Positions 3,904 to 28,668 of a stretch of 64,000 nt of DNA are shown piece by piece. The notes beneath the pieces were generated by a model. The model did not search any database and had not been told where the DNA came from. It worked only from the letters and a program-made list of their open reading frames with translations. Source of the DNA: a virus (taxonomy: Duplodnaviria; Heunggongvirae; Uroviricota; Caudoviricetes); the IMG/VR virus record IMGVR_UViG_3300045988_155182. One strand, written 5' to 3'. The position numbers and the translations under genes are program-made. How positions within the stretch are numbered: position 1 is the first letter of the stretch; each line of letters begins with the position of its first letter.

Positions 3904-4644
3904 ATGAGCCAAATCTTTTTTGATACCATTGACAACGACCAGTACGACTTCATGACAGAGTGGAATACCGCTGTTATGGACAAGTGGGTCGCTGAAAACA
4001 TTGGTTTGTCGCGCTGCAAAGACGAGGCTGAACTCTTCGAGACGAAGTGGTTTGATTACCGCGATATGCATCCTCTCATGGCCACCTGTCTGTTTACGGA
4101 GGCGTACAAACGTCAGTACTCAAATATCATGCTGACGCACGGTCGCGAACACTTTGAAACAGCTCCGTTCACCACCGGGTTAAAACGCCTGCCTTATCAG
4201 GAGTTGTCGACTGCCAATAAAACGTCGCTATGGAAAGCACGCCAGTTTGCTGATCGCTATTGCTGTTCATACGACTACTTTATCTCCACGGTTCTTTCCG
4301 CAGCTGCACGGCGTCTGTGGGACAAGTTGCCGCGCCCACAGCATTTATGGCAGCCAGAACTGATTGAGATATTCGAAGAGAAATTATCCAGACGCGCAAC
4401 AACCCGTCTGGATGACTCTCTGGTTAGCTTTAAGCATATGGGAGACATGCAGTTCAACCCGATTCAGGAAAGCTATTTTGAGTGGATTCTGGAGCGTTTG
4501 CGCACCATCCCTCGCAGCAAGCGCATACGCGCAATTTTCTCCGCTATCTGGCTAATGGAAATCGTTCCAGAGCGCCTTATTTCCGCCCACTTTCCAGAAG
4601 AACTGGAAGAAGCACGGCGGTTTATTGATCCCCTATCTAATTAA
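3904..4644 (+). CDS. Hypothetical protein upstream of the helicase (helicase-loader role is only a guess)
   Basis: Track ORF starts with GTG at 3895; ATG at 3904; 246 aa; no recognisable motif. Confidence 0.4.
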   Translation: MSQIFFDTIDNDQYDFMTEWNTAVMDKWVAENIGLSRCKDEAELFETKWFDYRDMHPLMATCLFTEAYKRQYSNIMLTHGREHFETAPFTTGLKRLPYQELSTANKTSLWKARQFADRYCCSYDYFISTVLSAAARRLWDKLPRPQHLWQPELIEIFEEKLSRRATTRLDDSLVSFKHMGDMQFNPIQESYFEWILERLRTIPRSKRIRAIFSAIWLMEIVPERLISAHFPEELEEARRFIDPLSN

Positions 4645-19273: not shown

Positions 19274-22200
19274 ATGAAGGCACTGATGGTTCGAACTGAC
19301 TTCTCACTTGGGGAGTCGGCTCTAAAAGCAGAAAACGCGGTGAAGATTGCCAGAGAAGCTGGCTACACCGCTGTAATTTCAGCAGATAGCATGAATATTG
19401 CAAGTGTTATTCCACTACAACGTGCCGCTGGTGACGACATGGCGGTTATTTGTGGTGTGAAACTAAACATTGTTGATGATCCCACATACGAGCACCGGGC
19501 TAAACTTGCTAAAGAATCTATGAGATGTATGGAATCATTAGAGCGGGGACGTAACTACTCGTTTACCGCTCTAATTAAAAATGAGCAAGGATATCGCGAC
19601 ATCTGCGAACTAATGACGGCGGCCAACACACGAGAACAGTTCTACTTTGTACCGCGTCTCTCGCTCGAACAGTTGGTTTCTACATATGCCAAAGGCAACA
19701 TCATCCTGCTTACTTCCGACATCGGTAGCGTGTTCCAACGCAACGATTTTGCAAAAATCATAAGCACACTGATTACAGCGGGTGGAAAAGACAACTTCTA
19801 TAGTGTGGTTTATCCGCATCCTACCCCATTCTACGACCAGATTAACGTCCGGGCGATGAAAGTCGCCAGCGCATTGAAAATAGAGCCAGTGGCGTTCTAT
19901 CCCGCTTATTACGAATCGATCGACGATGCAGACATTAAAGACATTGCGCACATGGTTACGAACAACATCAAAATCGACCAGCCGCATCGTCTGCGTATCC
20001 CCCACCAGCGAGATAACGCCGTCAATGGTCGCCGCCATCTCCTTGAGGCGCTTAAAGCCTTCTCCGTTCGCATGGATGTGCCGGTAACAGCTGCAATGGC
20101 CTCAACAACGCAGGATACCATTATCGATGCCTGCACATGGCGCTGGCATGAATTGCCGCCAGCACTGCCAAAGATGGCAGACGACGAGCCTGCAACGCTT
20201 ATGAAACTGGCTGTTGCAGGGCTGCGTAAACGTCTTACCACAAAAGAGTTTGGATACACACCACCTGCTTCAGAGAACAGGGTTTATGTTGAGCGGCTAA
20301 AGTACGAAATGGACACGCTGACTCGCCTGGGATTTTGTGGTTACTTCCTGATGGTACGCGATCTGATGAATCATAGTCGTGAAACTGGCATTCCCGTTGG
20401 GCCTGGTCGTGGTTCCTCTGCCGGTTCTCTGGTGGCGTGGTGCATAGGCATAACCAACGTCGACCCAATCCGTCACGGTCTTCTGTTTGAGCGTTTCATC
20501 AACCCTGAGCGTCTCGACTTGCCGGATGCGGACTTGGACTTCAGCCAGGCACGTCGCCATGAGGTGATCGAGTATCTGAATGAACGCTACGGCGAAGATT
20601 ACGTTGCGGGTATTCCGAACTTCACCTACCTGGGCGCAGCCTCTGCACTACGTGATACCGCTCGTATTTATGGTGTGGAGTCCGCAGATATGGCGGTATC
20701 AAAAGAACTGAAGAACGCTGAGGATGATAGCCTTCCATTGGAAGAACTGCGCGAACAACTGGCAAGTCTCGACAAATACGCAACAAAATATCCTGATGCA
20801 TTCAATGCAGCCTGCAAGTTACAAAGCCTTATGCGTGGCTTTGGTAGACATGCGGCAGGGATGATCGTAGCAGGTGTTCCTCTGACAGAACGTACACCGG
20901 TTGAGCGCCGTGGTGACGCGCGTTGTATCGCATTTGACAAGCGTTACTGCGAGGCTATGGGCCTAATTAAGCTGGACGTGCTTGGCCTGGCAACTCTCGA
21001 TTTGCTCGATAGTGCAAAACGCTACATAAAAGAGAACACAGGTGAAGATATCAATCTTGATGCCATTTCTCTTGAAGATCGCAAGGTGCTGGATGGTTTT
21101 GCTGCTGGGTACACTCAAGGTGTTTTCCAGCTTGAATCAGGCCCAATGCGCAAGCTGCTTAAAGATTTAGGTGGTGGAATTGAGCCAATGAGCTTTAAAA
21201 CGGTCGTCGCTACAACTGCGCTCTTCCGGCCGGGGCCAATTCAATCAGGCATGTTGGATGACTATGTTTCTGTCGCCAAAGGCTTTATGACGCCGGAATC
21301 ATTACACCCCGTTCTTGATGAACTTACCGCGGAAACAAATGGCGTGATTCTCTATCAGGAACAGACGATGAACGCGACTCGATTGCTTGCCGGCTTCACA
21401 ATGGCTGAAGCTGACGCTGTGCGTTCCGCAATCGGTAAGAAGAACATGGAAAAAATGAAGAGCATGGGCGAGAAGTTCATCGTTCAGGCTCAAGCTGGCT
21501 GGATAGACGTTGAGCTGGAAGATGGCACTACACAGCGCATTCACCGTGCGGAACATTTTAAATGCGAAGACGGAACTCTGAAAACTGTCGAAGAGGCACT
21601 TGAGCACGGCGCAAAACTACCTATAAACGCAGTACGCGTTACAGCGTCACATCCAGGGCTATCAGAGATGAAAGCGAAGGAGATCTGGACCGCATTTGAG
21701 AAAAACGGAGCCTATCAGTTCAATAAATCACACTCCGTTGCTTATTCTTTAATCAGTTATCAGTCTATGTGGCTAAAGACGCACTACCCTGCTGAGTTCT
21801 TCGCAGCTGCGCTCACCATTCTGGGCGAGGATAAGCATCAGGGGCTGGTGAAGGATGCGCTGACCTATGGCATTCGCGTATTGCCACCAGACGTTAATGT
21901 GTCATCTAACCGAATTGAGATCCGCACACTCGAAGACGGCAGTCAGGCACTGTATGCGCCATTCTCTGCTGTGAAAGGCTGTTCTGAAAATGGTTGTCAG
22001 GCAATTATGCGTGCGCGTGAGAAAGTTGGTGGCAAATTCGAGTCAGTGGCACAATTCGATGAAGCGGTCGAGAAGCGTGCATGTAACAGTCGTGTACGCG
22101 AGTCGCTTCATAAAGTAGGGGCTTTTGCGTCAATTGAGCCAGGCAGTCTGCCAGCAACTGATCCTGAACGACTGCGCGACCAGGCTGAGCTGATGGGCAA

Positions 22201-22792
22201 TCTCATCATTGACGCTGTTAAAGCATCACGTCCGTTCGAAATGAATCCTAAGCGTTCTGCCGAAATCAACGTACTCATGACACGTATGGCGGCTGAAATG
22301 GGCTTGGGTGAGGAGTTGATACGCCCGACTATTGGTATTAAACCCAAAATCATGATCATTCTGGACAATGCGAACGGCAATGACGCTCGTACCGGCTACT
22401 TCATGGAGAACGGATACGACGACTTTAAGGCAAAACTACTGACAGTTGGAGATCTGCGCATGGGCGATCTTTATGTCACGGGTGTTTGTAAGAAGGTTAA
22501 GGACAAAGAGAAAGACTATACCAAAGACGAGATAGGCCAGTTCACAGACTTTATGCGGGAAGAAATTAATCTTGTACGACCAACCTACATTTTGACGTGT
22601 GGTAGTCGTTCAACCGCACTATTTAACAATAAGAGTAAACCATCAGATCTGATTGGTCGTAAGGAGTACTTCCCAGAGCTTGATGCAACCGTCTTCTACG
22701 GATTTAACCCGAATATCCTGTACTTCCGACCGGAAGAAGGAGAGCGACTGGAGGCCATTCTGGCTGATATCGCGGAGACAATGAATAAGTAA
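19274..22792 (+). CDS. dnaE: DNA polymerase III alpha subunit (DnaE-type, PHP domain plus polymerase core)
   Basis: 1172 aa; GFCGYFLMVRDL...IPVGPGRGSSAGSLVAWCIGIT...LLFERFINPER and YQFNKSHSVAYSLISYQSMWLKTHYPAEF closely parallel E. coli DnaE motifs. Confidence 0.92.
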   Translation: MKALMVRTDFSLGESALKAENAVKIAREAGYTAVISADSMNIASVIPLQRAAGDDMAVICGVKLNIVDDPTYEHRAKLAKESMRCMESLERGRNYSFTALIKNEQGYRDICELMTAANTREQFYFVPRLSLEQLVSTYAKGNIILLTSDIGSVFQRNDFAKIISTLITAGGKDNFYSVVYPHPTPFYDQINVRAMKVASALKIEPVAFYPAYYESIDDADIKDIAHMVTNNIKIDQPHRLRIPHQRDNAVNGRRHLLEALKAFSVRMDVPVTAAMASTTQDTIIDACTWRWHELPPALPKMADDEPATLMKLAVAGLRKRLTTKEFGYTPPASENRVYVERLKYEMDTLTRLGFCGYFLMVRDLMNHSRETGIPVGPGRGSSAGSLVAWCIGITNVDPIRHGLLFERFINPERLDLPDADLDFSQARRHEVIEYLNERYGEDYVAGIPNFTYLGAASALRDTARIYGVESADMAVSKELKNAEDDSLPLEELREQLASLDKYATKYPDAFNAACKLQSLMRGFGRHAAGMIVAGVPLTERTPVERRGDARCIAFDKRYCEAMGLIKLDVLGLATLDLLDSAKRYIKENTGEDINLDAISLEDRKVLDGFAAGYTQGVFQLESGPMRKLLKDLGGGIEPMSFKTVVATTALFRPGPIQSGMLDDYVSVAKGFMTPESLHPVLDELTAETNGVILYQEQTMNATRLLAGFTMAEADAVRSAIGKKNMEKMKSMGEKFIVQAQAGWIDVELEDGTTQRIHRAEHFKCEDGTLKTVEEALEHGAKLPINAVRVTASHPGLSEMKAKEIWTAFEKNGAYQFNKSHSVAYSLISYQSMWLKTHYPAEFFAAALTILGEDKHQGLVKDALTYGIRVLPPDVNVSSNRIEIRTLEDGSQALYAPFSAVKGCSENGCQAIMRAREKVGGKFESVAQFDEAVEKRACNSRVRESLHKVGAFASIEPGSLPATDPERLRDQAELMGNLIIDAVKASRPFEMNPKRSAEINVLMTRMAAEMGLGEELIRPTIGIKPKIMIILDNANGNDARTGYFMENGYDDFKAKLLTVGDLRMGDLYVTGVCKKVKDKEKDYTKDEIGQFTDFMREEINLVRPTYILTCGSRSTALFNNKSKPSDLIGRKEYFPELDATVFYGFNPNILYFRPEEGERLEAILADIAETMNK

Positions 22793-22796
22793 TAAA

Positions 22797-22822
22797 GAAA
22801 ACCCGCCTGTTGGCGGGTTTAT
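22797..22822 (+). terminator. Hairpin terminator after the polymerase gene
   Basis: aaacccgcc tgtt ggcgggttt. Confidence 0.55.
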
Positions 22823-23095
22823 AAAGAATTATGGCGCTTGTTGAGGAAGTCACTCCTCTTACGCACTTTGTTTTGCCATGCCGGCAGTTAGCTTCTGCCT
22901 TTGACTATTCATGCGGCAACCCCGCATTTCGCCACAATGGGCAATTCACTTTTATGGAATAAACTGGCCGTTGTGTCGATTTAATTAGCATGGCCTTACC
23001 ATGCTAATTTATTCAACTTGTACAATCCTACAAATCTATCCACTCAGGCTTACACCGTCTTCGTTATTGTAGAAATGAGGATCATCAGCGTTGAA

Positions 23096-23311
23096 TCAGC
23101 TTAGAGCAACGACATTTGCTGCTGCTGGGCCTTTAGCACCATTCTCGATAGAGAATTCGACCTGCTGGCCTTCTTCCAAAGTGCGGAAATTATTACTCTG
23201 AATTGCCGAAAAATGTACAAAAACATCTTTACTGCCATCAGCAGGAGAAATAAAGCCAAAGCCTTTATCAGAGTTAAACCATTTTACTAAACCAGTCATT
23301 TTATTAGACAT
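23096..23311 (-). CDS. Cold-shock protein, CspA family
   Basis: [38 protein letters not shown]... with RNP motifs; start reassigned to the internal ATG at 23309-23311. Confidence 0.85.
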
Positions 23312-23640
23312 AGATATTACCTTCTTAATTTTGTGAGCCACATAGTGCGGCGAGAATTTGATCTGTATAGATTGGGACTTACTTAGGCACTTAAGGAGGA
23401 GACTCACGAAGAAGGGAAATCAGAAGATAACACTGAACTGAGACTGCTTTACTAAAACTGCTTACATAAGGTCTGTCTTGCAAACCAACGATGCTATTAA
23501 CGCATACCCCTTCTTTTCATGCAACCTTTATTTTTCAAAGATAACTAATTTTTGTCACCATTGGTTTAGTAAACGTTAACGAACCAGACGATGCCAGACA
23601 CCTTTACAGAGAACAGATGCCCGCCAATTGGCGGGCATCA

Positions 23641-24204
23641 TTATGCGCATTTCGCAATATCTTTGCGGCGTTTAATCAGTTTCTCCGCAATTTGCTCTAT
23701 TTCGTTGAAATCTTTCGAGACGCTGTTTCGAAGCGCCAGATTCCATTTACTCAAAGTTCGGGCATTTTGGACAATTTGATCGCCCTCTTTAAGTCGTCCG
23801 TTATTCATGAGCCATTCAGCCACATCAGCCCAATCCCAGAGAGGAGACTGGCCTTTTATGCGTTGTACAGGGCAAGGGAAGTCGCCGCTTCCGCGCTTAC
23901 CGTCTTTGAGCAACGCCACTGCCTGGCGAGACAGGTCTGTCAGTTCCGCGATATCACTTAAGCCCACAAGAGCCGAGTCGACGGATTCAACAATTGCACC
24001 GATACCGGCTGATTCAATATTGTCGACCGCAGATGCGATAGCTGCATCAAGTGATTGTGCTTCGCGGTCAAATTCTACATAGACGGAGTTTCCATATGCG
24101 CAAATTAGCGCATCGTCACAGCCGTTTTGGTACAGCGCGTCTTCCAGTCCTTCCGTCTCATACGATACGCCTGAGAGCGTCAGAGTGAAGTTATAAAGCG
24201 CCAT
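23641..24204 (-). CDS. Hypothetical protein; possible antitoxin partner of the upstream HicA-like gene
   Basis: 187 aa from MALYNFTLTL...; ATG at 24202-24204 preceded by an AGGAAAA RBS; immediately downstream of 24265..24489 on the same strand. Confidence 0.35.
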   Translation of the reverse strand: MALYNFTLTLSGVSYETEGLEDALYQNGCDDALICAYGNSVYVEFDREAQSLDAAIASAVDNIESAGIGAIVESVDSALVGLSDIAELTDLSRQAVALLKDGKRGSGDFPCPVQRIKGQSPLWDWADVAEWLMNNGRLKEGDQIVQNARTLSKWNLALRNSVSKDFNEIEQIAEKLIKRRKDIAKCA

Positions 24205-24264
24205 AGTTTTCCTTTGAAGATAGTTGGACAGTTTCTGCAAAAGGCGGCTAATGCCGCCTTGAAA

Positions 24265-24489
24265 TCATTTACAACGATCAACCATTCGTTTGATCTGTTT
24301 GGCATGGTTTTCGGGATTACCCGGAGTCGACCATACGCTCATTTGGTGAGTTTTGTGTTCACCTTCTGGATTACCGCATCGCAGTCTGCAAAAACAATGT
24401 GCAGCACCACCAGCAGCTACCCAGATCCAGCCTTTACTTAATGCATAGTCAATGGCTGCTTGAATATGCTTATTCGGATGTTGCTTCAT
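24265..24489 (-). CDS. Small HicA-like (YcfA-fold) protein, putative toxin
   Basis: 74 aa; LSKGWIWVAAGGAAH resembles the HicA KxGW...GSHH region. Confidence 0.3.
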   Translation of the reverse strand: MKQHPNKHIQAAIDYALSKGWIWVAAGGAAHCFCRLRCGNPEGEHKTHQMSVWSTPGNPENHAKQIKRMVDRCK

Positions 24490-24770
24490 TCGCCTCCGAT
24501 AATAGTATTCTATTCACAGTGTTGACATCTGTCAACGGCGACTGAATTTCATCCGTTCATGCCACACCCCCATCCATCTCATGTATGTGACCTAAAGATG
24601 GTCAGCACAGCTTACCAAAATAAGACAACTAATTATCTTCGGTGATCTCAATATTTTCCCCTGAACAAAGTTGACATGACGCCATAAACCCGTTCTCTGT
24701 TTGATATAATTGATACAGATTTTATAAGTAGGAACCTATTAGAGTGAACACTGATATTTTTTCTAAAATC

Positions 24771-25292: not shown

Positions 25293-26321
25293 ATGTCTAA
25301 GACATTACTTGATTTGCTTAACAAAACTCGTGAAGACATTGCCGCCAAACGTGGTAACAACGTTGATCTGACTCGCTTAAAAGATGGCGTCAACTATATC
25401 CGTATCTTCCCGAATAAGGACGACCCAAACGGTAAGTTCTTCCAGACTTTCGGTATGCACTACGTTAAGTATCAGAACGAGGACGGTAAAGAAGCCACCA
25501 ACGCTTATATTTGTGAGCAACATACTCACGGTCGCGCTTGTCAGCTATGCGAAATGGTGATGGAAGGTCGCGCTCGTCACAAGGGTAACAAAGCAATGGA
25601 AGAGCGCATCGGCCAAATGCGCGCCACTCCTCGCTACCTGGTCAATGGCATTCTTTCTGCTCGTGAGGATTTCGCAGATGCTGAGAAATGCCAGTTAATC
25701 GAGCTGCCGTCTACTGTATTCGATGATATCTGCAAAGCAATCACCGAAGACATCGCTGATGATATCGGCAATCCACTGAGCAAAGAGGAAGGCTACGCAT
25801 TCCTGATTAAACGTACTGGCTCTGGTCGCGATACCAAATATGACGTCTCGCCTAAGCGTAAAGTCTACAAAGGCGATATCGAAGATAAATTCTGGAACAC
25901 CCAGCATGATCTGATCGCATACGCAAATCAGGCTGATGAAACTCGTCTTCTGTCGACAGTTCGCACTATGGGTCGTCTGATTGGCATCGCTGCACCAACT
26001 GCCGCAGCATCTGCACCAGCAATTTCCTCAACCGCGAAAACATCGGCTGCGGCACTACCTGGATTTGGCTCTGTCACTGGTCATACAGAAGGAGCGACGG
26101 CTGTAGCAACCGCGCACACACCGGCTTCTGAACCAACCAGTCTGGTTGATGAAGAAATCCTCCGTGCCGTTGAAACTGAATTTAAACCAGAGGCAAGTTC
26201 CGCTGCCGTTGCCGTATCAGTCAAAGAGTCTGAAGCAGTCGCAGCGACATCTGTAGCAACCGCATCTGCGACGGAAGATGAAGGTCTGGATGACCTACTG
26301 AGAGAGCTGGACTCTCTGTAA
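25293..26321 (+). CDS. Single-stranded DNA-binding protein, T4 gp32-like
   Basis: N-terminal basic region, Cys/His cluster (CEQHTHGRACQLC) resembling the gp32 zinc subdomain, long A/S/T-rich linker and acidic C-terminal tail (EDEGLDDLLRELDSL). Confidence 0.55.
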   Translation: MSKTLLDLLNKTREDIAAKRGNNVDLTRLKDGVNYIRIFPNKDDPNGKFFQTFGMHYVKYQNEDGKEATNAYICEQHTHGRACQLCEMVMEGRARHKGNKAMEERIGQMRATPRYLVNGILSAREDFADAEKCQLIELPSTVFDDICKAITEDIADDIGNPLSKEEGYAFLIKRTGSGRDTKYDVSPKRKVYKGDIEDKFWNTQHDLIAYANQADETRLLSTVRTMGRLIGIAAPTAAASAPAISSTAKTSAAALPGFGSVTGHTEGATAVATAHTPASEPTSLVDEEILRAVETEFKPEASSAAVAVSVKESEAVAATSVATASATEDEGLDDLLRELDSL

Positions 26322-27594: not shown

Positions 27595-28668
27595 ATGGCA
27601 AAAGGAAAATCCGCACTGGCACTTGCTCTGAAAAAGAAAATCGGTAGCAACGACGAAATTCAGAAAGTAACTCATTGGATTGATACAGGCTTTCCACCGT
27701 TAAACAAAGCTATTTCTGGTCGTTACGATGGCGGCTTCCCATGTGGTCGTATCGTCGAAGTATTCGGTCCTCCAAGTGCAGGGAAAACGTTCCTTGCAAC
27801 AGCAGCGATGATCTCCGCTCAAAAACAAGATGGTCTGGCGGTATTCCTCGATCATGAAAACAGTTTTGACGTTGGCCTGGCTGTCGCCAATGGCCTGAAC
27901 GCAGATGAGGATGACGGTCAGTGGGTATACAAGCAGCCAGATACCTTCGAAGACTCTGTAGAGTTGATCGGCACAATACTTAAATTGGTTCGTGATGAAG
28001 AGCTTATCCCTGAATCAGCACCTATCTGTATCGTGGCTGACTCTCTTGCGTCTATGGTTCCGAACTCCAAAGCCGAGAAGTTCGAAAAGATGGCTGAAGG
28101 CACTGCCAAAGACAAAGATCAGCTAAACATGAACGACAATACGGCACTGGCTCGTGCGACGAGTGCGAACTTCCCTACTCTGGCTTTGTGGGCACGCAAA
28201 TACAACGCCTGCATCATCTTCTTGAATCAGGTTCGCACAAAAATCGGTGTAATGTTTGGCGACCCTACTACGTCGCCAGGTGGAGATTCACCGAAGTTCT
28301 ACGCTTCTGTACGTATCCGTCTTGGTGCATCGGTGATGAAGGATGGTAAAGAGAAGATCGGCCAGGACGTAGGCGCAGAATGCATCAAAAACAAAGTTGC
28401 ACCACCGTATGGCAAATGCACCTGGAAATTCTACTTCGATCCTACTCGTGGCCTCGACGTTATCGAATCGCTCGTCGAGTACATGCTGGAAGAAGGATAC
28501 CTGCCAAAGAACGCCAGCGGGCGAGTTGAAATTGGTGACAAGAAATACACCAAATCGCAGATCGTTGAGATGTATCGGGAGAAGCCACTGGCTGAAATCA
28601 TTGCGGCTTTGCAGGCAATCGACGACCGAAGAGCAAAAGACAACCCCACCGAGTCAGTAGAAGAGTAA
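27595..28668 (+). CDS. RecA-superfamily recombinase (RecA/UvsX-like)
   Basis: Walker A GPPSAGKT in a RecA-like core (EVFGPPSAGKTFLA); 357 aa. Confidence 0.8.
   Translation: MAKGKSALALALKKKIGSNDEIQKVTHWIDTGFPPLNKAISGRYDGGFPCGRIVEVFGPPSAGKTFLATAAMISAQKQDGLAVFLDHENSFDVGLAVANGLNADEDDGQWVYKQPDTFEDSVELIGTILKLVRDEELIPESAPICIVADSLASMVPNSKAEKFEKMAEGTAKDKDQLNMNDNTALARATSANFPTLALWARKYNACIIFLNQVRTKIGVMFGDPTTSPGGDSPKFYASVRIRLGASVMKDGKEKIGQDVGAECIKNKVAPPYGKCTWKFYFDPTRGLDVIESLVEYMLEEGYLPKNASGRVEIGDKKYTKSQIVEMYREKPLAEIIAALQAIDDRRAKDNPTESVEE

Follow-up and report, generated by a model that had tools for sequence, protein, structure and literature searches.

Among the closest described counterparts of the locus analyzed here are the HicAB toxin-antitoxin (TA) modules, in which HicA is an mRNA interferase and HicB the antitoxin. 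In the systems used for comparison (E. coli, PDB 6HPB; B. pseudomallei, 6G26; S. pneumoniae, 5YRZ; and HicA3B3 of Y. pestis, 4P78), the toxin gene comes first, a palindromic operator lies at the promoter, and the modules are carried on phages and plasmids. HicA proteins have an α-β-β-β-α topology resembling that of double-stranded RNA-binding domains (PMC10865869), with a catalytic histidine in the β1-β2 loop just after a glycine or another small residue, as in G22/H24 of the B. pseudomallei toxin, H28 of Y. pestis and H23 of E. coli (PMC11594946). HicB is known with or without a DNA-binding domain (PMC10865869). The same names have been given to two genes of Escherichia phage Cyrano whose counterparts, called here gene A and gene B, lie together with a third gene, csp, on the minus strand of a 64,000-nucleotide stretch of Caudoviricetes DNA (IMG/VR record IMGVR_UViG_3300045988_155182; this whole stretch is referred to as the window). 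Our analysis shows that this three-gene island is made of two independent units, A-B (23616-24536) and csp (~22799-23615). A-B is reasonably likely to be a self-repressed type II TA-like module serving phage-plasmid maintenance, phage exclusion or both.

Gene A (24265-24489, minus strand) encodes a His/Cys-rich protein of 74 amino acids, the candidate toxin, and is preceded by a GGAGG Shine-Dalgarno sequence (24493-24497, minus strand). Gene B (23641-24204, minus strand) encodes the candidate antitoxin and autorepressor, a protein of 187 amino acids counted from an ATG (MALYNF...); an alternative TTG at 24240 could lengthen the protein, a start for which homologues give no support. The third gene, csp (23096-23308, minus strand), encodes a 71-residue CspA-family cold-shock protein of the CspG/B/I type from an ATG (MSNKMTG...), the open reading frame (ORF) called mechanically extending back to a GTG at 23407. 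A first-pass annotation, made from the sequence of the window, had reported these three minus-strand ORFs, all of which are present where it placed them, and had likened to HicA toxins a 'KGW...GGAAH' string of A, which is indeed readable in the protein (SKGWIWVAAGGAAH). A, B and csp are not chance ORFs, since csp gives a strong cold-shock domain match, A and B have hundreds of homologues, and both are transcribed in an LF82 lysogen.

The HicA/HicB naming is not new. The Cyrano record labels A 'HicA toxin protein' and B 'putative antitoxin HicB', leaving the csp gene unannotated, and both genes were listed as morons by Misson et al. (2023), with a mention of 'HicA-HicB' (PMC9928086). In lysogens of LF82 grown in lysogeny broth, transcription of A reached 30x and that of B 14x the prophage background (PMC9928086). 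As csp is unannotated in OV696614.1 (L001 8297-8608, minus strand), it falls outside the published moron and transcriptome table. Other sources name the same genes differently: in RefSeq plasmids, identical copies of A and B are each a 'hypothetical protein' and the identical third gene is cspG, while the record of Salmonella phage SSU5 calls the orthologues 'hypothetical protein' and 'excisionase and transcriptional regulator', the latter being also the PHROGs name of the B family. One NCBI record (P0039, Shewanella sp.) names an A-family member 'ribulose bisphosphate carboxylase small subunit', and sub-threshold matches to PF00101 (RuBisCO_small) occur in 26 of 33 A-family members, with a best E value of 1e-4; this label is probably spurious. 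A literature search for PDC-M06, the RefSeq accessions and phrog_5923 returned nothing beyond PMC9928086.

Two other described entities are among the closest to A-B. The first is PDC-M06, an unpublished two-gene candidate of PADLOC-DB v2, to which the locus belongs: A matches PDLC04383 (PDC-M06A) with an E value of 1.2e-19 and B matches PDLC04388 (PDC-M06B) at 1.3e-32, in adjacent genes. The corresponding PHROGs families are phrog_5923 and phrog_2620, respectively. PDC-M06 is a catalogue entry only, without described mechanism, structure or phenotype, whose models are also matched by Histophilus and Planctomycetota homologues. The second is the orthologous pair SSU5_055/SSU5_054 of Salmonella phage SSU5, with its equivalent in pHCM2/pMT1-like plasmids, which occupies the same backbone site, between the gene for the DNA polymerase III alpha subunit and the uvsY-like and gp32 genes. 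Unlike the window, SSU5 lacks the csp cassette there.

The association of A with a B-type partner is almost invariant. Across 118 loci (64 genome loci and 54 viral contigs) scored with local hidden Markov models, A was followed by a B-type gene on the same strand in 117, comprising 63 of the 64 genome loci and all 54 viral contigs, with spacings ranging from an overlap to ~120 nt. These loci extend from Enterobacterales to Planctomycetota, Verrucomicrobia, Nitrospinota and Rhodothermales. In SSU5-like phage-plasmids of Escherichia, Enterobacter, Klebsiella, Cronobacter and Yersinia pestis, as in SSU5 itself, A-B sits at one backbone site; it is also found in a P2-like prophage of Histophilus beside Phd/YoeB, in an integrative island beside a RelE pair and, in Providencia, as an isolated islet of the two genes, flanked by housekeeping genes. 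The locus thus has what is generally expected of a type II TA system, a small co-oriented gene pair conserved across taxa and mobile elements.

What the partners share is confined to the N-terminal domain of B. A structure model of B (predicted local distance difference test score, pLDDT, 91) shows a ferredoxin-like β-α-β-β-α-β domain (residues 2-75), a winged helix-turn-helix (HTH) of the AlpA/Xis type (residues 82-134) and a C-terminal hairpin of two long helices (residues 143-186), the first two domains being taken to span about residues 1-78 and 79-140. The N-domain is the only part universal among partners, and stands alone in the proteins of 80-100 amino acids from Planctomycetota, Verrucomicrobia, Nitrospinota, Rhodothermales and Achromatium. 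It is followed by the HTH in the proteins of 146-154 amino acids from Pasteurellaceae and Neisseria, where A and B often overlap, and by both the HTH and the helices in those of 180-190 amino acids from Enterobacterales. This modularity parallels that of HicB, which may likewise carry or lack a DNA-binding domain (PMC10865869). Mannheimia indoligenes also has, ~1.7 kb downstream of A-B, a further B-like ORF that is incomplete, covering profile positions 35-152 (L041 7388-7735).

A ferredoxin-like fold is also that of the antitoxin GhoS in the type V TA system GhoS/GhoT, and the B partner shows likewise β-α-β-β-α-β. Despite the parallel in domain architecture, B is not a HicB protein by sequence or by predicted fold, contrary to its proposed role as a HicB antitoxin. 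[quoted passage not shown] A conserved hairpin between the two genes (see below) further distinguishes the locus from HicAB.

The way in which the pair decays provides a proxy for toxicity. Nine loci carry a destroyed A next to an intact B, through independent and differing lesions (W53stop, C38stop, five frameshifts and two internal deletions), and one (L054) has lost both genes. Since only one locus shows the reverse situation, the asymmetry is 9:1, which fits a toxin that is dispensable and an antitoxin whose loss is not tolerated. B is moreover a ~2.5x larger mutational target than A in most decayed loci, and a simple binomial calculation for nine of ten single lesions falling in A gives, by hand arithmetic, ~1e-4.

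This asymmetry bears on a different explanation, in which A-B would be a regulatory pair rather than a TA system, B being an AlpA/excisionase-like transcription factor acting on replication and recombination genes or on the choice between lysis and lysogeny, with A as its small co-regulator or an anti-repressor. The 'excisionase and transcriptional regulator' naming in PHROGs and in the SSU5 record points in this direction, as do the AlpA-like winged HTH of B and the fixed position of the pair, which in SSU5-like elements lies within the replication/recombination block and diverges from uvsY/gp32. However, a 9:1 bias would be unexpected for a co-regulator, the pair also occurs away from phages, in the islet between housekeeping genes, as well as in a P2-like prophage and in integrative islands, and the partners from distant phyla are devoid of a DNA-binding domain, so that DNA binding is not the conserved core of the system. 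Together with the location of the palindrome on the promoter of A-B itself, these observations make a purely regulatory role quite unlikely.

The first-pass annotation had proposed A as a HicA-like protein to be checked by profile searches; these were performed with A and 119 family members, and were negative with Pfam, NCBIfam, PDB profiles and hhalign. Searches of PHROGs, PADLOC, Pfam and NCBIfam with all three proteins returned no HicA or HicB match, and A itself has no HicA match in Pfam or NCBIfam. PF07927, the HicA family, gave no match at E <= 10 among 33 close and 86 diverse A-family members, and neither HicA nor HicB was found in Pfam at the same cut-off with 33, 28 and 86 aligned relatives. 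PDB sequence searches, with single sequences and two A-family profiles, retrieved no HicA and only noise (lectins, RuBisCO small chain, thioredoxin-glutathione reductase). The A family, with 672 clusters at 50% identity (E <= 1e-3), is without a Pfam family. A canonical HicAB module, with A as a HicA-family mRNA interferase and B as a HicB antitoxin, is therefore very unlikely, even though the annotation of the Cyrano record, echoed in PMC9928086, the toxin-first gene order and a histidine in the equivalent loop of A all speak for it.

The likeness to HicA lies in the predicted fold. The AlphaFold2 model of A (pLDDT 86) is a small single domain made of α 7-18, β 21-25, β 32-38, β 49-53 and α 59-72, that is, the α-β-β-β-α topology of HicA, while Foldseek found no significant neighbor of this model. 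H31, kept in 82 of 86 A-family members, sits between the predicted strands 21-25 and 32-38, in the predicted β1-β2 loop; a G, A or S precedes it in 82 of 86, which is reminiscent of the G-x-H feature of HicA (PMC11594946). In the hhalign comparisons, the only stretch aligned within a non-significant match placed A H31 on H28 of TTHA1913 in one run and one residue off in the other. These features are suggestive of a HicA-fold-like protein, as judged from the model, lying outside the HicA family. Two further features set A apart from HicA: an invariant N-terminal H-P-N-K motif, whose H4 is present in 86 of 86 members, and a metal-ligand-like conservation of C38, C/H48 and C73 (the latter often followed by a histidine) in the same 86-member alignment. 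The pattern points to a probable zinc site formed by these residues, absent from HicA. That A is an RNase is less certain than the TA-like nature of the pair, and somewhat less likely than not.

The transcription signals of the pair are consistent with autoregulation. Upstream of A, a promoter (24507-24536, minus strand; 11/12 in a consensus scan) combines a -10 TAGAAT (24507-24512), a 17-nt spacer and a -35 TTGACA enclosed in a perfect palindrome, GTTGACA-GA-TGTCAAC (24521-24536). The 7-2-7 arms of this palindrome are kept in every Enterobacterales locus examined, its central 2 nt and flanks being variable, and in Pasteurellaceae, where it reads GTTTACA-NN-TGTWAAC, both arms co-vary. Judged by its sequence, such a palindrome is a candidate autoregulatory operator for a dimeric HTH protein. 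Between the stop codon of A and the start codon of B, a GC-rich hairpin (24241-24260, minus strand; AAGGCGGC-ATTA-GCCGCCTT then TTGC; -16.1 kcal/mol) is predicted, and a strong hairpin of differing sequence is found at the same position in almost all enterobacterial loci (L003-L073). This element could be an attenuator or an RNA-stability element, setting the A:B ratio or stabilizing the A transcript. A short T-run stands behind some of these enterobacterial hairpins, which are then terminator-like, and is absent behind others. The unit ends 3' of B with a terminator-like hairpin (23616-23639, minus strand; GATGCCCGCCAATTGGCGGGCATC).

From these data, a mechanism can be proposed for A-B. A strong sigma-70 promoter, with its -35 element inside the 7-2-7 palindrome, would drive A and then B. 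A would be the harmful component, most likely through RNase activity on mRNA, and may bind zinc. The ferredoxin-like N-domain of B would bind and neutralize A, whereas its AlpA-type winged HTH and its C-terminal helical hairpin, acting in dimerization, would repress the operon by binding to the palindrome. Carried by a low-copy phage-plasmid, the module could favor plasmid retention, abort superinfecting phages, or both. The pair is a backbone feature of phage-plasmids of the SSU5/pLF82/pMT1 type.

Anti-phage abortive infection overlaps with this proposal and differs from it only in the function under selection: the prophage would exclude rivals, the effector A being freed when an infecting phage perturbs B. 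Both genes match the PDC-M06 models, the pair lies on mobile elements and beside other TA pairs, with a restriction-modification system within 8 kb of one Providencia locus, it counts among the morons expressed in the lysogen (PMC9928086), and HicA-type toxins have been proposed as defence agents (PMC10865869). On the other hand, PDC systems are unpublished candidates (PMC11811056), and a single backbone site on low-copy phage-plasmids fits plasmid addiction equally well. Defence as the selected function is hence rather unlikely on its own, while being the most substantial of the alternatives discussed here.

Several observations weigh against the TA-like proposal or against the HicA-like fold of A. 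The first is the single exception to the decay of A before B, a metagenomic viral contig (L097; IMG/VR 3300013741_000046, 4266-4272) where A is intact and an 80-bp deletion removes the ribosome-binding site and the first 15 codons of B; the deletion could stem from faulty assembly, or the variant could be protected by a B supplied in trans. Some of the lesions in other loci may be assembly errors as well. The locus search, built on a 33-sequence alignment, needed the N-terminal peptide of A, so that loci without any A were not sampled. Conservation of the palindrome may in part reflect a mere consensus -35. The intercistronic hairpin fits the ~2:1 ratio of A to B transcripts, and both would favor the toxin over the antitoxin, which is awkward for a simple TA model. 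As for structure, the fold of the B N-domain differs from that of HicB, and the most conserved residue of A, H4, and its cysteine pattern have no counterpart in HicA, so the chemistry of A may differ from that of HicA. Finally, hhalign comparisons of the A family with HicA gave non-significant probabilities of 0.6% and 4.4%, a weak negative given the shallow HicA alignment (effective sequence number ~2.8), which combined the verified sequences of PDB entries 1WHZ and 6HPB with fragments and Thermus/Meiothermus homologues.

The second unit of the island is of a different nature. As reported in the first-pass annotation, csp encodes a complete CspA-type protein: residues 5-69 match the Pfam CSD domain (1.4e-33), the NCBIfam models CspG and CspA score 146.6 bits (cut-off 144) and 140.2 bits (cut-off 130), and the RNP1 (KGFGFI) and RNP2 (VFVHF) motifs are both readable, as expected for a CspA-family domain. 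The gene resembles E. coli cspA, cspG, cspB and cspI and their prophage copies (e.g., CspB/CspI of Tritos), which have the 70-residue cold-shock domain, the same motifs and the RF01766 5' untranslated region (5'UTR), and chromosomal cspG shows ~79% nucleotide identity to it. Unlike these genes, the csp of the window is carried by a phage-plasmid, in an 818-bp cassette. Two further assignments for the protein, as a retron-Se72 effector or as a TOTE CSD, were rejected because the scores are below the family cut-offs.

The regulatory elements of csp are its own. A cspA-type mRNA element, made of the thermoregulator 5'UTR and the coding sequence, spans 23071-23489 (minus strand) and matches Rfam RF01766 with 187.6 bits (E 3.8e-51), well above the gathering score of 78. 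The match covers model positions 1-428 and lacks the terminal hairpin alone; csp thus carries the long cold-sensing 5'UTR. Directly upstream of the start of this RNA at 23489, a putative promoter (23496-23524, minus strand) was read by eye, with a -35 TTGCAT (23519-23524), a 17-nt spacer, an extended -10 TGcGTTAAT (23496-23501) and an AT-rich tract upstream; the consensus promoter scan did not list it. We presume that this arrangement, TTGCAT-17-TGcGTTAAT, resembles the promoter of E. coli cspA. Downstream, the stop codon of csp is ~275 nt away from a hairpin at 22799-22820, a distance that explains why the Rfam terminal stem is missing at its usual place, and this hairpin is the probable csp terminator. 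It is a bidirectional hairpin located 3' of dnaE (AAACCCGCCTGTTGGCGGGTTT), scored as terminator-like for the minus strand. The csp 3' region further contains an inverted repeat, 19 nt long and imperfect (TTAATTAGCATGG...CCATGCTAATT, 22975-23017), which gave a meaningless sub-threshold match to Rfam mir-2187.

The borders of the csp unit suggest how it was acquired. The same 16-nt palindrome, CCCGCC-NNNN-GGCGGG, is found twice, as the direct repeat D1, at 22802-22817, within the dnaE-side hairpin (left copy), and at 23620-23635, within the terminator of B (right copy). The two copies are 88% identical, lie 818 nt apart and bracket csp. In plasmid pXH988_2, which is 98.6% identical over A-B, csp is absent and B directly follows dnaE, with a single hairpin, CCCGCC-AACT-GGCGGG, between them. 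The bracketing palindrome shares its core with the consensus terminator of Rfam cspA, so that the csp cassette was probably inserted by recombination at a terminator hairpin resembling that of cspA itself.

These features, namely its own promoter, 5'UTR and terminator, the duplicated palindrome and the absence of csp from relatives keeping A-B, establish csp as an independent, recently acquired 818-bp moron. It had been proposed that A, B and csp form a single counter-oriented cluster acting in RNA metabolism or addiction. Their adjacency and shared orientation are real, with csp measured 332 bp beyond the stop codon of B (about 330 bp in the first-pass annotation), and they recur in 63 PLSDB plasmids and in 13 of the 14 viral contigs of the Escherichia clade with at least 96% identical A; an unrelated Alteromonadaceae genome also holds a csp just downstream of A-B. 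The terminator after B, the promoter and complete cspA thermosensor UTR of csp and a cassette missing from a 98.6%-identical plasmid speak against such a module. Besides, csp is rare near divergent A-B: among 40 viral contigs with a more divergent A, 39 have no csp in the 4-kb flank and one has it 2.4 kb beyond B, and 62 of 63 other genome loci lack it within the flank, values close to chance, while Klebsiella relatives hold csp elsewhere on the plasmid. A link between csp and A-B, examined across the 118 loci, was rejected, and the single-module proposal, now highly improbable, is largely refuted. The csp RNA chaperone would rather be induced on temperature downshift, from its own cspA-like promoter, 5'UTR and terminator, independently of A-B.

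Some side observations concern the same slot. The Alteromonadaceae csp, in a metagenome-assembled genome (L034 6081-6293), shares the orientation of B, lies ~300 nt downstream of it and represents one of 64 loci, about what chance would give. In Enterobacter relatives, the slot downstream of B holds a 214-residue ORF instead of csp (L003 6930-7574, plus strand), which has no Pfam or PADLOC match and is also present in contig L097 (4850-5494). The presence of csp or of this ORF in the same slot indicates that the site behaves as a cargo hotspot.

The surroundings of the island confirm one border proposed in the first-pass annotation and correct the other. The terminator of dnaE does lie on one side, whereas the direct plus-strand neighbor on the other side is a UvsY-like ORF (24744/24771-25175, plus strand), the gp32-type single-stranded DNA-binding protein gene (25293-26321, plus strand), initially taken as the border, coming only after it. 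Over 22800-24750, the sequence shows 99.8% identity to Cyrano (OV696614), which is the phage-plasmid pLF82 of the adherent-invasive E. coli strain LF82; 435 PLSDB plasmids match this region, 63 of them with at least 99% identity. The window is a close relative of Cyrano only, identity with Cyrano itself being ruled out by recA: the window gene (27595-28668, plus strand) encodes an intein-free protein of 357 amino acids, against a recA coding sequence of 2340 nt in Cyrano (L001 12795-15134). Enterobacter hormaechei relatives encode a 780-residue RecA with Intein_splicing and LAGLIDADG domains (L003 548-2890), and the intein is thus a presence/absence polymorphism among close relatives. In a similar manner, dnaE of the window (19274-22792) is a single ORF of 1172 codons, while in SSU5-like plasmids of E. 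hormaechei it is cut into parts of 787 and 389 amino acids by a NUMOD4/HNH homing-endonuclease gene (L003 8053-12225).

Collectively, the initial view of this island has been partly retained: A-B is TA-like, A has a predicted HicA-like fold and csp is a genuine cold-shock gene, but A and B are not members of the HicA and HicB families, nor do the three genes make up a single module. In a broader interpretation, to which we give a little less than an even chance, A-B would represent a distinct TA/abortive-infection family spread across several phyla. It would associate a zinc-stapled toxin of HicA fold, with its own catalytic set H4/K7/H31/H62, and a ferredoxin-like neutralizer of 80 amino acids that gained an AlpA-type DNA-binding domain in Gammaproteobacteria, and would serve as the maintenance/exclusion module of the SSU5/pHCM2/pMT1-type backbone, including in Yersinia pestis and clinical Enterobacteriaceae. 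If this holds true, the public HicAB label assigns the pair to the wrong family.

SSU5-like phage-plasmids occur widely in clinical Escherichia, Klebsiella, Enterobacter, Salmonella and Yersinia. While csp is ordinary, one more phage-borne cold-shock moron missed by the Cyrano annotation, A-B combines a fixed backbone position, expression in the lysogen and the genomic signatures expected of a TA module. The pair has its sole catalogue entry in PADLOC, as an unpublished candidate, and carries a wrong name in one public record; no curated family includes it, and its labels are inconsistent, ranging from 'HicA/HicB' and 'hypothetical protein' to 'excisionase' and 'RuBisCO small subunit'. Should it prove to be a distinct TA or defence family, these annotations would be corrected, a new combination of toxin and antitoxin domains would be added to HicA-like fold space, and A-B would offer a handle on phage-plasmid maintenance and exclusion.

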